DNA of 64,000 nt from a virus (IMGVR_UViG_3300044904_000102:1729-65728), one strand, 5' to 3'. Numbered from the stretch's first letter, positions 2,577 through 36,231 are shown. Translations and numbers: made by a program. Notes: generated from the letters alone by a model not told the origin.

Positions 2577-2610
2577 AGGCCCGCTCGGCTGCAAGGCTGG
2601 GCGGGCCTTT
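2577..2610 (+). terminator. GCAA-tetraloop hairpin with short U tract just before the portal start
   Basis: aggcccgctcggct GCAA ggctgggcgggcct tt. Confidence 0.45.
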
Positions 2611-2617
2611 GGATTTG

Positions 2618-5600
2618 ATGGCCAATAGCACCTCGATCATAATTCGCCCGCTCGGCCAGCTTGTGGCGGCGCTATCCCGCTACGGCCAGCAACTCTACCA
2701 ACCTCCGAAAGACACGATCCGCGGCGTCGAGCCGGACACGTGGTATTCGCCCCTCCAACCAGTCAAGCCCATTGGGCCGCCCGGGATCGAGCCGCGCGGC
2801 TTCCAGTATTATGCCGGGCAAAACCTCCTGTGGACGCCACGCGCGGATGCTGAGTATTCTGCGGCAGACCTGAAGGAGTTGGCGCGCTATCCGCTGGCGC
2901 GAATTGCCATCGAGAACGTCAAAGATGAACTCTGCAAGGCGAGCTGGCAGATCCAGCCGCGCCCTCAGCTGGGAGAATCGCGCAAGGCGGCGACGAAGCG
3001 GGGCCTGGAGGATGTGAACCTTCTCAAGCTGAATAAGTTTTTTGAAATGCCGGACCGCGAGCATACGTGGCCTGAATGGCTGCGGCCGCTCTTGGAAGAC
3101 ATGCTGGTGATCGACGCCTGGTCTATTTTAATTAGAAAAACTTTCAGCGGAGAGGTGGTCGAGCTTATTGGTCTTCGAGGGGATTCGATTGTCAGATACA
3201 TCGACGAGAACGGCTTCACGCCGCTGCCCCCCGAGCCGGCCTATGCGCAATTATGGTGGGGGATCCCGCTCATTAACCTCTCGACCGACCAACTAGTTTA
3301 CAAGCCCCGCAACATCGTGCCCCGCAATACCATTGCCTCTCAGCTTTACGGAATGTCGCCATGCGAGCAACTGGCTCCTGAAATTGAAATTGGAATAAAG
3401 CGACTAGCGTTCATTTCTGCCTATTATTCCGATGGCTCAGTCCCGGGCGCCATGCAAGTTGTCCCCAAGGGCGTCCCAACCGAGAAGATCGCCGAAGCGA
3501 TGCAATGGATGAACTCCGAGCTGGCGGGGAATCTGGCGAAGCGGCGGCAGTGGCAACTGATCCAGGGATGGAAGGACGAGGGCAAGGACGAGCAGATTAT
3601 CTTTCCGAAGGAGCCACTTCTTGCTGACCTCTTTGATGAGCAGCACACCCGAAGGATCGCCTTCGGCTTCGGCATTTCTCCGCAACGATTGATGCGGCAG
3701 ATGAATCGGGCTGCTGCCCAGGCAAGCCAGGAGGCGGCTGACATTGAAGGACTGCTGCCGTATTTCTCATCCCTCAAAGCGCTGATGGATTTCATCATCC
3801 GGCGCAAGATGGGCTTCGATGCTTATGAGATGGTCTTCGATCCCCTGGCTGAGCCCGACCCATCAAAGCAGGCCGAGACGATCAAGATATACGTGAGCGG
3901 TGGCGTGTTGACGCCGAACGAGGGCCGCGAGCGGTTGGGCGAAGAGGCGCGGTCGGAGCCCGAGGCCGACATGCTGGGCATCGTGACCGGCACTGGGTTT
4001 GTGCCGCTGGGTGGGGCAGGCGGCCTATCTACACCAGCGCCGACACCGCCGAAGTCCGGGGAAGGAGTTACCGATGGAATTCCTGATAAGGGAAAGGGTG
4101 GAGCGGGAGCATCAGGCGGCGACGAAGAGCTTGACGCCGACGGCAAGCCCATTGTCGCCGACGGCCGTGGCCAGCCCCGCAAGCCTGCCAGCGCCAACAA
4201 GCCCAACGGTGGCGCGGCGGCGAAAGCGCAGACGGAAAACCGGCCCATCGGGTTCGCGACGGGCACAGTCTTAACCGAGTCTGCGCCGCCTGAGCATGGA
4301 GTACTTACTATTGCAGCAGCCAGCGGCGAGCATTTCATCAAAGCCAAGCCGCAGCCGCGAGAGGTGCCTGTAATTCATCCCGGGCGATTGCTCCCGCCGT
4401 CCATCCTGGCGCGCCACAAGATGGAGCGCGACCTCACGAAAATCTTCCGCACCATGCACCGGAAGACGACAAAGGTTATGGCTGCGGCGCTGGGCCTTCC
4501 GCACGGTCACTTGGCAAAGGCCGAGCCGGACGCCGATGCAACCCTCCGGGAGGTCATGGACAGTCTTGCCGCCGAGTGGGAAACGATTGCCCGGTTGGCG
4601 AAGAAACCTCTCACGGATGCGGCCCTGGCGGGAGCTTCTAAGGGGGCGCTTGAACTGGAGATTTCAGCTGAGGACATGCTGACCGGCATCAACGAGACGG
4701 CGCGCAAATGGGCCTCGAACCGGGCGGCCGAGCTGGTGGGGATGCGGCTGACGCCTGAAGGCAAGTTCATCGTCAACCCGAATCCCAAGTGGGCGATCAG
4801 CGACACGACGCGCGACAAACTGCGCTCCGTTATCACGGACGTGTTCGGACAAGAGGGCAAGATCACCCTGCGTGACGTGGAGAATCGCATCGAGCAGTCG
4901 GGCGTTTTCTCGGACGTGCGAGCCTCGACGATCGCGCGCAACGAGATCGCCCGGGCGCAGACGCAGGGCAACCTTAAGAGCTGGCGGGAATCCGGGTTGG
5001 TGCAGAAGGTGTCATGGGAACTATCGGAGGACCACGACAAAGACGATATTTGCAATGAACTGGAAGGCCAGTATGACATCAACGACGTCCCGGACCTGCC
5101 GGCTCATGTAAATTGCTGCCTACCTGGAACTGTAGTAACGGCCTGTGGCGGCATTGCGGCGCAGCTTTCGCGGCGTTACAAGGGGAAGGCCATTGTAATC
5201 GGGACCGAGACGGGCGAACACCTCGCCGTGACTCCAAACCATCCTGTACTCACGGGGCGAGGACTTGTCGGAGCCGGAGTTCTGCGCAAGGGCGATTATG
5301 TGTTTCGCAGCGGGACGCCACGACTTGCAGCCCTGATTATTGACCCAGACCACGACAACGTGCCAACCGTGATTGAGGAGATAGGCCGTGCGCTTCTGGA
5401 AGCGGGAGGCGTGAGTACCGGAGGAATGCCAATTTCCGCCGAAGATTTCCACGGCGACGGAATCGTTGACGGCGAGGTCAATATTGTATGGTCCGCAGAC
5501 TTTCTGGAATTGGATAGAGCATCCCGAAAGAAGCGCGGCCATTTTTCGCTCGTAGCTCGTGATATGGCGCACGGCATTGGCTTCCCGGCCTCTCGCCCTG

Positions 5601-5980
5601 CGGCACAGGTCGGAGAAGGTCCGCTTGCTGCCACGGACAGCAGCGTGGGCAGCCGCAGCCATCGCGCTGCGCCTCTCGGGACTGCGACGGCTGTTGAGGA
5701 TGAGCTGCATTTCAGTGAAAGTTCTGATTCTGAACCCGTGACGCTTAAACAACTCGCGAATCGTGAGACTGTGACAGCCAAAAGTTTTGGCGATATCGAC
5801 CGAAGACTCGCCGGCCTCATATCGGCGGTAGAGGTCGTTGACATCTCCGAAATTGATTTTGAGGGGCATGTCGGCAATCTCCAGACAGGAACAGGATTTT
5901 ATTTCACAGACGGAATTTTAACACACAACTGCCTGTGCAGCATCGTGCTGGCCGAACCGTCCGATGAGGGAGCGGAGTAG
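2618..5980 (+). CDS. Portal protein fused through a Gly/Pro-rich linker to a MuF-like minor head domain, containing an intein
   Basis: Portal motifs YGMSPCEQL, GSVPG, IAFGFGISPQRL, GVLTPNEGRERLG; MuF motifs RASTIARNEIARA, HDKDDICNEL, PAHVN/CLC. Confidence 0.88.
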   Translation: MANSTSIIIRPLGQLVAALSRYGQQLYQPPKDTIRGVEPDTWYSPLQPVKPIGPPGIEPRGFQYYAGQNLLWTPRADAEYSAADLKELARYPLARIAIENVKDELCKASWQIQPRPQLGESRKAATKRGLEDVNLLKLNKFFEMPDREHTWPEWLRPLLEDMLVIDAWSILIRKTFSGEVVELIGLRGDSIVRYIDENGFTPLPPEPAYAQLWWGIPLINLSTDQLVYKPRNIVPRNTIASQLYGMSPCEQLAPEIEIGIKRLAFISAYYSDGSVPGAMQVVPKGVPTEKIAEAMQWMNSELAGNLAKRRQWQLIQGWKDEGKDEQIIFPKEPLLADLFDEQHTRRIAFGFGISPQRLMRQMNRAAAQASQEAADIEGLLPYFSSLKALMDFIIRRKMGFDAYEMVFDPLAEPDPSKQAETIKIYVSGGVLTPNEGRERLGEEARSEPEADMLGIVTGTGFVPLGGAGGLSTPAPTPPKSGEGVTDGIPDKGKGGAGASGGDEELDADGKPIVADGRGQPRKPASANKPNGGAAAKAQTENRPIGFATGTVLTESAPPEHGVLTIAAASGEHFIKAKPQPREVPVIHPGRLLPPSILARHKMERDLTKIFRTMHRKTTKVMAAALGLPHGHLAKAEPDADATLREVMDSLAAEWETIARLAKKPLTDAALAGASKGALELEISAEDMLTGINETARKWASNRAAELVGMRLTPEGKFIVNPNPKWAISDTTRDKLRSVITDVFGQEGKITLRDVENRIEQSGVFSDVRASTIARNEIARAQTQGNLKSWRESGLVQKVSWELSEDHDKDDICNELEGQYDINDVPDLPAHVNCCLPGTVVTACGGIAAQLSRRYKGKAIVIGTETGEHLAVTPNHPVLTGRGLVGAGVLRKGDYVFRSGTPRLAALIIDPDHDNVPTVIEEIGRALLEAGGVSTGGMPISAEDFHGDGIVDGEVNIVWSADFLELDRASRKKRGHFSLVARDMAHGIGFPASRPAAQVGEGPLAATDSSVGSRSHRAAPLGTATAVEDELHFSESSDSEPVTLKQLANRETVTAKSFGDIDRRLAGLISAVEVVDISEIDFEGHVGNLQTGTGFYFTDGILTHNCLCSIVLAEPSDEGAE
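5114..5929 (+). mobile_element. Intein (272 aa) inserted in the MuF HxN-CxC motif
   Basis: Block A CCLPGTVV, block B LAVTPNHPVLT..GLV.AG.LRKGD, blocks F/G FEGHVGNLQT...FTDGILTHN|C; removal restores PAHVNCLCSIV. Confidence 0.93.
5120..5869 (-). CDS. Homing-type endonuclease (N-terminal HTH plus DUF559/Vsr-like nuclease), antisense and nested inside the intein
   Basis: LYRRYEAGESSVDIAKTFGCHSLTIRELFKRHG (HTH); SYERKM...FQKVCGPYNIDLA...VAVEIFGGNWH...RTAYLLNHGWHVVVVW; GGAG SD 9 nt before ATG. Confidence 0.85.
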   Translation of the reverse strand: MPLKINFGDVNDLYRRYEAGESSVDIAKTFGCHSLTIRELFKRHGFRIRTFTEMQLILNSRRSPERRSAMAAAAHAAVRGSKRTFSDLCRRARGREANAVRHITSYERKMAALLSGCSIQFQKVCGPYNIDLAVNDSVAVEIFGGNWHSSGTHASRFQKRTAYLLNHGWHVVVVWVNNQGCKSWRPAAKHIIALAQNSGSDKSSPREYRMVWSHGEVFARLGPDYNGLPLVTPRKLRRNAATGRYYSSR

Positions 5981-6106
5981 TAATGCGCCATGCAAACGAA
6001 GTGCGGAAAGAACCAAGCATGAGGCCAGCGGCTCCAAAGCGACCGGTCCCGCAGCCGGGAATCACGACGGCGCTGGGTTTCAACTTTTGCGATTCGAGGT
6101 GACACG

Positions 6107-6262
6107 ATGACGGCTCCATGGAGTTTGATTTGTCTGGTTCTCGCGCTGGTGCTGTTCGCACTTGGCGCCTTCGCGTGGCCGATCCCGTTCGACGGCTGGC
6201 GCGTGAAGATCGTCTCGGCGGGCCTGATGTTCCTGGTCCTGTCGCAGCTGATTCGGGCTTGA
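6107..6262 (+). CDS. Small two-TM membrane protein
   Basis: Read manually: MTAPWSLICLVLALVLFALGAFAWPIPFDGWRVKIVSAGLMFLVLSQLIRA; GAGGT SD. Confidence 0.6.
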   Translation: MTAPWSLICLVLALVLFALGAFAWPIPFDGWRVKIVSAGLMFLVLSQLIRA

Positions 6263-34996: not shown

Positions 34997-35647
34997 TCAT
35001 GTTGGCAGTTCCGGGACGTAAATGATCTTATCTTTGGTTGCGATGGCAAAATGATCAGATTTGCTGTGATCTCCGGCTCTCGTGCGGAAGTGGACGCCAC
35101 CGCCCATCTTGACGTAGCCAGCGCGGACTTCAATTTTCAGGATACCTGCTTCCCGCAAGATCACCAGATCGCAAGGGGCATTTGGACTCATCGCGCGATA
35201 AACAGCAAAACCCCTGGTCATCAGATCCACTGCCACACGCAATTCGGAAACGGATCCCGAAGTCGATGTCGAGAGCCCTGGATACAGAGGCTTAAGATTG
35301 GAGTGAGAGCGCGTGTTGCCACGACAAGTGGCACTGCAATATTCCGCTCGGGGAGTGCCGATGAATTCATTTCCGCAACCTGCACATTTTCGTGTAATCA
35401 GGCGTTTTTGATAGATCCTCTGTTTCGATTGTTCCTCGGTGGGGATAGGGCAGCGTGGGACCCTTGGGTGAAGAACGCTATACAATTCCCTCTTGCGCTT
35501 ATTCCTTGCGATCTGCGCGTTCCTCCTACATCTAAGGCTACAGTATTTGACACTGCAACAGCCTCGACTGTACGAACCCCGCGAAGCTGGGATTGGACTC
35601 TTGCAACGTGCACAAAATCGGGAATGGCTTACAATAGGTGCGGTCAT
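34997..35647 (-). CDS. Free-standing PD-(D/E)XK homing endonuclease with N-terminal Zn fingers
   Basis: CARC..YCSLRC, CAGC..YCSATC; GSVSELRVAVDLMTRGFAVY..PCDLVI..KIEVR; AAGGAG SD. Confidence 0.82.
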   Translation of the reverse strand: MTAPIVSHSRFCARCKSPIPASRGSYSRGCCSVKYCSLRCRRNAQIARNKRKRELYSVLHPRVPRCPIPTEEQSKQRIYQKRLITRKCAGCGNEFIGTPRAEYCSATCRGNTRSHSNLKPLYPGLSTSTSGSVSELRVAVDLMTRGFAVYRAMSPNAPCDLVILREAGILKIEVRAGYVKMGGGVHFRTRAGDHSKSDHFAIATKDKIIYVPELPT

Positions 35648-35748
35648 GGGCTGCTCCTTCAGTCTGTGACTTGGGCCTGTGGGAGCGGCAGCTCTCATGG
35701 GCCCTATAAATATGATACTAGCCCTCTTTTCCGGGGTGAGACAGAGCC

Positions 35749-36231
35749 ATGACCTTCAAACACTTCTTGCGGCGCGTGGATTTCATCACCAATGATGCCT
35801 TCAGACTGATCGGTGATTTCATAAATGTAGTGACGGGCGACATGCTCTTCGAGATATTCGCCTGGTTTGCGGTCTTCGTGATCGTGATCGGAACAGTCCT
35901 TCGCTCTTCCGCACACAACATGCCCGTATCGCAGCAGGGCGGCATGGCCCAGGCAATGCAGATAGGCGCGATGACCGCGCGCGAGGAGGAATACGAGAAG
36001 CGACTCGACAGGGTTGACGCGGAGATCGACACGCTCAGAGCGGCCGACGATGCGATCCGGGTTGCGCATGCGAGCCTGGCCGCGGGGCAGAAAGAAATCG
36101 AGAAAACGCTTGATCGGCTGACCGGCGCGATTCTGCTGGGCGTCCTTGCCGTCTTCGGACGCCTGGGGCATTCCATCTGGACGCAGATCCTCGACAAGCG
36201 CAGACAACGCGGCAGGTCGCGCAACACATGA
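35749..36231 (+). CDS. Membrane/coiled-coil protein of the lysis region (start uncertain)
   Basis: TM-coiled coil-TM layout before holin. Confidence 0.55.
   Translation: MTFKHFLRRVDFITNDAFRLIGDFINVVTGDMLFEIFAWFAVFVIVIGTVLRSSAHNMPVSQQGGMAQAMQIGAMTAREEEYEKRLDRVDAEIDTLRAADDAIRVAHASLAAGQKEIEKTLDRLTGAILLGVLAVFGRLGHSIWTQILDKRRQRGRSRNT

Follow-up and report, generated by a model that had tools for sequence, protein, structure and literature searches.

We analysed a 64,000 nt stretch of viral DNA (IMGVR_UViG_3300044904_000102:1729-65728), below called the window, in which a portal-MuF gene is interrupted by an intein whose coding sequence carries a separate nuclease gene on its opposite strand. The host gene is an open reading frame (ORF) at 2609..5980 on the + strand, 1123 aa before splicing, with Pfam matches to Phage_portal (PF04860, E 9.6e-12, residues 140–444), to Phage_Mu_F (PF04233, E 3.1e-5, residues 753–822, under the curated cutoff) and to Intein_splicing (E 0.0021). 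The class-1 intein comprises 272 codons at 5114..5929 (+) and lies between HVN and CLC of the MuF motif H-x-N-C-x-C. The nuclease gene, 249 aa plus a stop codon, starts with ATG and runs at 5120..5869 on the − strand, codon-aligned antisense to the intein. The element is single-copy in its source IMG/VR virus record (65,728 bases, estimated 72% complete).

Relatives were collected by a pattern search based on an alignment of nuclease homologues, which gave 345 IMG/VR stretches, of which 80 were fetched, and 24 species-representative genomes. Our counts of the nested layout rest on 104 loci, chosen by nuclease homology. At every one of them the nuclease match fell wholly within a longer open frame of 286–1514 aa on the opposite strand, and the two frames shared the same codon register. 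Both junctions (H-x-x/C and N/C with Cys at +1, the slash marking the junction) were readable at 98/104 loci. The N-side junctions were HPN (57), HPR (10), HVN (6) and others, and the C-side N/C junction was followed by CRC (55), CVC (9) and others. The insertion site of the family is thus the MuF H-P-N-C-R-C motif. The six loci without both junctions (L007, L035, L047, L048, L074, L103) are contig-end cuts or have variant motifs and were left out of the intein set. Among the 98 two-junction loci 77 distinct intein sequences were found, which together with the window gave 78 inteins, aligned by codon in both frames. Their lengths form two classes of about 268–282 and 313–334 codons. We also assigned ten host ORFs with other junction motifs using Pfam: six matched Phage_Mu_F, two Phage_min_cap2, one an intein plus Zeta_toxin and one an intein only. 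A DNA-pattern scan for block B, which is independent of the nuclease, found at least 115 loci; of these, 96 had the nuclease on the opposite strand and none had it on the same strand, while 19 gave no match (E ≤1e-5), several of these being contig-end cuts or other inteins. A split or fractured gene was ruled out, as the + frame runs unbroken across the intein, both in the window and at 104/104 loci.

A few of the collected loci deviate. The host ORF at L187:4780-7509 (+), which carries an intein with an antisense nuclease, ends in a Zeta_toxin / AAA_33 domain (E 9.2e-23) and has no Phage_Mu_F match. L119:2-4006 (+) is a 1335-aa open frame with Intein_splicing matches in two stretches and no other Pfam family, and may hold two inteins. 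Two loci look decaying: L101 has an intein of 194 codons (4821-5402) with a nuclease match limited to residues 116–249, and in L047 the nuclease frame is broken, leaving an open stretch of 71 aa, with the host frame still open.

The + translation of the window reads PAHVN-CCLPGTVV at the N junction and GILTHN-CLCSIVLAEP at the C junction. We define the insert as CCLPGT...THN, 272 codons, because the N junction of related loci reads HPN/C[LFVIC]LPGT. The Cys at the intein start is encoded at 5114-5116 and the Cys+1 of the C-extein at 5930-5932, and the C-extein has 16 residues (CLCSIVLAEPSDEGAE). The N-terminal splicing lobe, with Cys1 and the block B residues T40-P-N-H43, spans codons 1–66 (5114..5311, +), and the C-terminal lobe, with block F GHVGNLQT and block G GILTHN, spans codons 230–272 (5801..5929, +) and ends in H271-N272. 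All 78 inteins share C1, N42, H43 and N272, T40 shows at least 90% conservation, and the consensus at the C end is GHVYNLQT...YIANGIIxHN. An AlphaFold2 (AF2) model built from the 78 intein-frame sequences was confident at residues 1–130 and 230–272, with a predicted local distance difference test score (pLDDT) of 91–98 in both lobes. It has the HINT fold: aligned with VIA-align, the Mtu RecA mini-intein 2in0 gave Z 13.4 with a root-mean-square deviation (rmsd) of 1.6 over 107 residues. Z was at least 8 to 61 chains, and those listed are inteins, intein-like (BIL) and Hedgehog autoprocessing domains. The Pfam and NCBIfam intein matches are confined to the two ends of the intein and score under the curated cutoffs (PF14890 22.2 bits, cutoff 35.8; TIGR01445 21.2, cutoff 24.5); the long non-homologous centre interrupts the profiles.

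In this centre the intein frame appears to encode no nuclease. Codons 138–222 (5525..5779, +) have pLDDT below 50 and are predicted to form a disordered linker, which mirrors the nuclease HTH (helix-turn-helix) and helical part on the other strand. The library searches gave no endonuclease family match in the centre of the + frame and the AF2 model showed no endonuclease fold there, which rules out an in-frame endonuclease. The string E-D-F-H-G-D in the intein frame, reminiscent of the name “EDxHD,” is the mirror of the nuclease strand AVEIF and not a nuclease motif.

The nuclease ORF on the − strand uses triplets identical to those of the intein codons. Its TAG stop (5122-5120) is the reverse complement of CTA, the Leu codon 3 of the intein. 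The N-terminal HTH region, about residues 6–48 (5726..5854, −), was recognized by HTH_38 (E 0.01) and by a profile match to 2lvs (E 4.5e-5), with further profile matches to HTH chains of resolvases and transposases, and the AF2 model places helices at residues 10–18, 23–30 and 34–43. In the longer database homologues (about 300 aa) a further HTH repeat is present at the N terminus. Residues 102–222 (5204..5566, −) form a Vsr-like PD-(D/E)XK catalytic domain, as judged from fold, profile and invariant residues. The family libraries matched the protein to MTES_1575 REase (E 7.7e-7), DUF559 (E 0.006) and the NCBIfam DUF559 and Vsr models, and most of its database homologues carry a precomputed PF18741 match. 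All of these scores fall under the curated cutoffs for the protein itself, and we therefore assign it no more closely than to the superfamily. Among 5.8 billion proteins searched, there were 25 homologues (E 6e-75 to 4e-17, 31–51% identity). In their alignment N129, D131 and E141 are invariant and G144, G145 and H148 nearly so, and in 78/78 distinct inteins N129, D131, E141, G144, G145, H148 and R160 are all invariant. The homologue-alignment profile matched the DUF559 protein 3hrl (E 4.8e-7), Vsr 1cw0 (E 4.4e-5) and I-Bth0305I 3r3p (E 5.8e-4), and D131, E141, G144, G145 and H148 align with the D / E-x-D-G-G / H positions of 3hrl.

The AF2 model of the nuclease (mean pLDDT 84.6) agrees with these profiles. 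It matched Vsr 1cw0 with Z 11.0 (rmsd 2.3 over 112 residues, model residues 102–222), 1vsr with Z 10.0, I-Bth0305I with Z 9.4 and 3hrl with Z 9.3, so that I-Bth0305I lies within about 1.5 Z of the Vsr and DUF559 matches; the next, unrelated folds, at about Z 6, were clearly below. A Foldseek search of the “pdb” database with the same model gave no match at E ≤0.001. I-Bth0305I (PDB 3r3p), which Taylor et al. are said to have described in 2011, is reportedly an EDxHD family homing endonuclease of a group I intron. It shares the Vsr-like fold with the present nuclease (rmsd 2.5, 93 residues aligned), and both are tied to a phage mobile intervening sequence, but I-Bth0305I is intron-encoded and on the sense strand, and the sequence identity is only about 16%.

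To see which of the two frames is under selection, we compared codon-position variability along the 78 inteins. In intein codons 1–61 and 244–258 it is the intein third positions that vary most, and the intein is more conserved (identity 0.32–0.52) than its mirror protein (0.18–0.39). In codons 62–243 the most variable positions (0.54–0.70) are the intein first positions, which are the third positions of the nuclease, and the nuclease is the better conserved product (0.25–0.64 vs. 0.15–0.52 for the + frame). Within codons 138–243 the + frame drops to an identity of 0.15–0.24 against 0.26–0.46 in the nuclease frame. Selection thus switches strand along the intein, acting on the intein frame at the ends (1–61 and 244–272) and on the nuclease frame in the centre (62–243). 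The nuclease frame is under purifying selection across 30–50% protein identity.

Both frames are also kept open by selection. TTA, CTA and TCA do not occur in the central nuclease codons (0 vs. 313.3 predicted by extein codon usage); in the remaining two host-strand frames, 576 and 981 stops were counted. The nuclease frame has a single stop in 78 inteins; for the two alternative frames of the − strand the counts are 352 and 842. The same three triplets, here read as nuclease-frame stops, are missing from intein codons 26–65 (0 vs. 72.6 expected) and enriched at intein codons 1–5, where they terminate the nuclease (50 vs. 12.2 expected). That both frames remain open in lineages diverged to 30–50% identity speaks for selection that continues. 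In the window taken by itself, a + frame open across the centre would arise by chance with a probability of ∼0.027, and the family-level evidence therefore bears the weight. One further overlapping pair occurs elsewhere in the window, at 34997-35752, where a 233-aa ORF on the − strand (34997..35698) is overlaid by a 233-aa ORF on the + strand (35051..35752).

A preliminary description, made from the sequence of the window alone, had placed a 272-aa intein with intact blocks at 5114-5929 within the MuF motif HVN/CLC, had seen no nuclease in its centre on the + strand, and had proposed that a complete, codon-aligned 249-aa ORF at 5869→5120, with its stop on intein codon 3 and a GGAG at 5882-5879, encodes an HTH and a DUF559/Vsr-like nuclease. 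All of this stands: the intein boundaries are exact in the ORF translation, profile and structure searches of both frames returned HINT on the + strand and a Vsr-like PD-(D/E)XK nuclease on the − strand, and the antisense ORF remains open in homologues. Taken together, we conclude that an HTH and Vsr-like nuclease is genuinely encoded by the antisense ORF.

The putative start signals of this gene lie within codons of the intein splicing blocks. The ATG (5867..5869, −) is CAT, a His codon of block F, in reverse complement. A candidate Shine-Dalgarno (SD) sequence, GGAG (5879..5882, −), is located 9 nt before the ATG and lies opposite the codons CTC CAG, which specify Leu-Gln in block F. A candidate extended −10 element, TGTTAAAAT (5915..5923, −), likewise lies opposite the codons that specify I-L-T in block G. 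In the family the intein residue opposite the nuclease start is His in 74/78 and Gln in 4/78, and the start codons are ATG (63), GTG (11) and TTG (4). The codon choice at silent positions follows the same pattern. The block F His is encoded by CAT, not CAC, in 41/51 cases (21.9 expected), and the block F Leu by CTC in 45/53 (11.6 expected), which together with the Asn codon gives GAGG or GGAG. An SD-like 4-mer is found within −16..−5 in 60/78 inteins. In block G, Ile is ATA in 20/27 (3.4 expected) and ATT in 28/40 (10.1 expected), and Thr is ACA in 16/25 (3.8 expected). The resulting −10-like family consensus on the nuclease strand is TGnTATAAT at −54..−46.

A second dual-coded site lies in the part of the intein that is otherwise under nuclease-frame selection. 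Intein residues H113-G114-D115-G116 (5450..5461, +) are encoded opposite nuclease residues 137–140, beside the catalytic Glu141. In the intein frame they are His in 77/78, Gly in 74/78, Asp in 78/78 and Gly in 69/78 sequences, and the intein model is ordered here. The opposite nuclease residues 137 (P/S/R/A) and 138 (V/I) vary; the intein H-G-D-G is thus more conserved than the nuclease residues it faces. The third bases of nuclease codons 137–140 are almost fixed (GTG 77/78, GCC 74/75, GTC or ATC 78/78, and CCC/TCC/CGC/GCC), and therefore the intein frame reads H-G-D-G. At nearby invariant Gly and Arg residues of the nuclease three or four codons are used freely.

Cultured phages carry the same element. 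A tblastn search with the nuclease matched 70 cultured phage records, of which 62 are Salmonella phages, mostly Jerseyvirus; the other carriers are Escherichia, Vibrio, Shigella, Pantoea and Gordonia phages. The MuF gene of phage PK1 matched 450 phage records, only 58 of which cover at least 80% of the gene. In phage ER2 (∼88% nucleotide identity) precisely the intein is absent, and the sequence is MPPAHPN-CRSTTAP where PK1 reads HPN/CLLGDT...VIAHN/CRSTTAP. Intein-less alleles with a precise junction are thus found at 87–88% nucleotide identity, a pattern that fits homing or precise loss.

In the existing records the nuclease is easily overlooked. For phage Snoke (L105) the 273-residue intein is annotated without an antisense coding sequence, in PK1 (L106) the antisense ORF is called hypothetical, resulting in two overlapping “hypothetical proteins,” and in Gordonia phage Malisha (L107) host gene 5 is a “hypothetical protein.” In most Salmonella phage records the product is given simply as a head morphogenesis or hypothetical protein, and one names the host gene “NAD+--asparagine ADP-ribosyltransferase.” Genome annotation thus misses the nuclease. 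The arrangement of the host genes also differs between loci: portal and MuF are fused in one ORF in the window (2609-5113, +) and in L173 (Phage_portal E 5.3e-39 plus Phage_Mu_F), and are separate adjacent genes in Snoke, PK1 and Malisha.

The preliminary description had regarded this architecture as not previously described. This claim fails, because anti-sense VSR-like endonucleases in full inteins of actinobacteriophages are reported in a preprint by Gosselin, Arsenault and Gogarten (bioRxiv 10.1101/2025.01.02.630785). According to the passages of the preprint compared here, minor capsid proteins are among four host protein types for non-canonical homing endonucleases (HENs), the proposed origin is a free-standing HEN invading an intein, and Gorbalenya (1998) and Gogarten (2002) are cited for earlier anti-sense LAGLIDADG HENs. 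Judged by these passages the systems are alike in having a contiguous intein, a HEN region that is unstructured in frame and a separate antisense ORF with a Vsr-like fold; Vsr 1CW0 is matched with Z 10.6 there and 11.0 here, and 3R3P is matched in both (by HHpred in theirs). They differ in that the preprint, in the same passages, covers actinophages from PhagesDB only and calls the architecture rare, whereas the present set consists of 345 IMG/VR stretches (80 examined), 24 species genomes and 70 cultured phage records. In the present element the nuclease ORF shares sequence with blocks A, B and F, blocks F and G contain its start codon, SD and −10-like box, and the H-G-D-G is dual-coded with the active-site strand of the nuclease. 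The concept is therefore already in the 2025 preprint, and the window is no new kind of system. Relative to the passages compared, it adds breadth beyond actinophages, a single MuF/minor-capsid target site, the overlap of the nuclease with the splicing blocks, codon-bias evidence for embedded signals, and the H-G-D-G.

Three other systems are related in part, as far as the portions of the respective articles compared here describe them. In the cyanobacterial dnaX intein (Gorbalenya, 1998; Gogarten, 2002; Phillips, DeSimone and Gogarten, 10.64898/2026.09.14.751524) the HEN also lies outside the reading frame of the intein, and selection is frame-dependent as here, the homing endonuclease frame being constrained and the intein frame relaxed in the overlap. 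The dnaX system differs in its LAGLIDADG nuclease, its dnaX host gene and its cellular host, and its ORF is called “+2” in the 2026 preprint. The portions compared contain no analysis of an embedded promoter or ribosome-binding site. The “fractured genes” of Dassa et al. (2009; PMC2677866) are split inteins with a free-standing Vsr-like or GIY-YIG homing endonuclease gene (HEG) between the halves. They resemble the present case in that a Vsr-like HEG is a gene of its own inside the intein region of a phage gene, with its own expression signals and short coding overlaps. There, however, host gene and intein are broken into two genes and the overlaps are 6–69 bp, whereas here the intein is unbroken and both strands carry coding sequence over about 750 bp; the word “antisense” is used 0 times in their text. 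Finally, the ShiLan-type insert in a phage methylase (Arsenault et al., 2025; PMC11855218) is a hidden, out-of-frame HNH insert. It is similar in that the host frame is stop-free across the insert and the real product is a nuclease in another frame, but it has no splicing domain and its HNH nuclease is encoded on the same strand.

We consider it likely that the MuF (minor capsid / head morphogenesis) region of the portal-MuF gene harbours a two-strand mobile element, its function being deduced from sequence and models. On the + strand, the late structural gene would be translated straight through the class-1 intein, the N and C lobes of which would fold as a HINT domain and splice HVN to CLC; the about 85 central residues would form a disordered loop that only mirrors what the other strand encodes. 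The separate gene for the HTH and Vsr-like nuclease, which shares this codon register on the − strand, would be expressed from a −10-like box that is the antisense of the block G Ile-Ile/Leu-Thr codons, an SD that is the antisense of the block F Asn-Leu-Gln/Glu codons and a start codon opposite the His codon of block F. The most likely target of its product is the intein-less MuF allele of co-infecting phages, cut at H-P-N/C-R-C or close by, and repair from the occupied allele would then copy intein and nuclease together. From the sequences we infer that the intein splices, that the antisense gene is transcribed and translated, where its product cuts and that homing takes place. The fixed insertion site and the empty alleles in close relatives lend indirect support to a homing function of the nuclease.

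Several observations weigh against parts of this reading. The Pfam scores of the nuclease are below their cutoffs (MTES_1575, PF18741, 29.5 bits vs. 38.2; DUF559, PF04480, 16.8 vs. 20.6), and 18/78 inteins have no SD-like 4-mer. Only 19/55 family members show TGnTAnnnT, the strict form of the extended −10, and a sigma-70 two-hexamer scan of 4900-6200 on both strands gave 0 promoters, where the sigma-70 rules may not be those of the host; the scan of this region returned one weak terminator-like site. Thus the extended −10 promoter proposed in the preliminary description holds as to its position (5923-5915) and its codon bias in the family, but the strict pattern and the two-hexamer scan do not bear it out, and we treat the antisense promoter as a candidate and not as a finding. 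The stop-codon expectations use extein codon usage and the sequences are related and non-independent, so that exact probabilities are rough, with the direction firm. The presence/absence polymorphism was seen in Jerseyviruses, outside the window's own lineage, where precise loss is possible as well. Finally, some inteins with VSR-like HENs look vertically inherited, as stated in passages of the actinophage preprint (10.1101/2025.01.02.630785).

This last point favours the explanation that survives best among the alternatives, namely that the nuclease is real and expressed but no longer drives homing, or never did; the element would be inherited vertically, serve another role (e.g., cutting competing phage genomes) or be decaying, as the copies in L101 and L047 suggest. 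We find this unlikely. The seven residues of the catalytic core are invariant in 78/78 inteins, the nuclease frame is under purifying selection at 30–50% identity, and the site is a homologous MuF/minor-capsid site wherever the junction can be read, in 98/104 loci by motif and in 8/10 odd junctions by Pfam. Intein-less alleles with a precise junction at 87–88% nucleotide identity also speak against it.

It could also be that the intein does not splice. The 16-residue C-extein is short and might be dispensable, in which case MuF would work with a C-terminal appendage and the insert would be a tolerated endonuclease insertion like “ShiLan”; the compared portions of PMC11855218 indeed describe an insert that is open in the host frame, hides an HNH gene and lacks a splicing domain. 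However, the class-1 residues C1, T40 and H43, the terminal His-Asn and Cys+1 are all conserved, the HINT fold is confidently predicted, the splicing ends are under intein-frame selection, and the + frame is open to the end in all 104 loci, which makes a non-splicing insert very improbable.

That the antisense ORF is a non-functional shadow, left open easily in GC-rich DNA opposite a linker or a degenerate in-frame endonuclease, draws on the chance of ∼0.027 for the window alone, which is not negligible, on the other overlapping ORF pair at 34997-35752 and on the Pfam scores under the cutoffs, but has next to no credibility against the variability of antisense third positions across codons 62–243, the matches to Vsr, DUF559 and I-Bth0305I obtained independently by profile and by fold, the seven residues invariant in 78/78, the predicted disorder of the + centre and the 1 stop vs. 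352 and 842 in the other frames, which together rule out a chance antisense ORF.

The antisense layout might be a stable, co-adapted design and not the transitional accident of an endonuclease landing in an intein, an idea that we doubt slightly more than we believe. The C-terminal splicing blocks would then have been recoded at silent positions as −10 box, ribosome-binding site and nuclease start, and the C-terminal third of the nuclease would be read off the N-terminal lobe of the intein, so that neither gene could be changed or lost without damage to the other. Such mutual dependence would explain how one element holds the same MuF/minor-capsid site across phages of several bacterial phyla.

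The locus is an extreme case of dual-strand coding, as about 750 bp encode two folded proteins with selection handed from one strand to the other, and the expression signals of one of them appear to be hidden inside catalytic protein motifs of the other. As members of the family are found in cultured E. coli and Salmonella phages, expression of the antisense HEN, its timing and homing would be directly testable.

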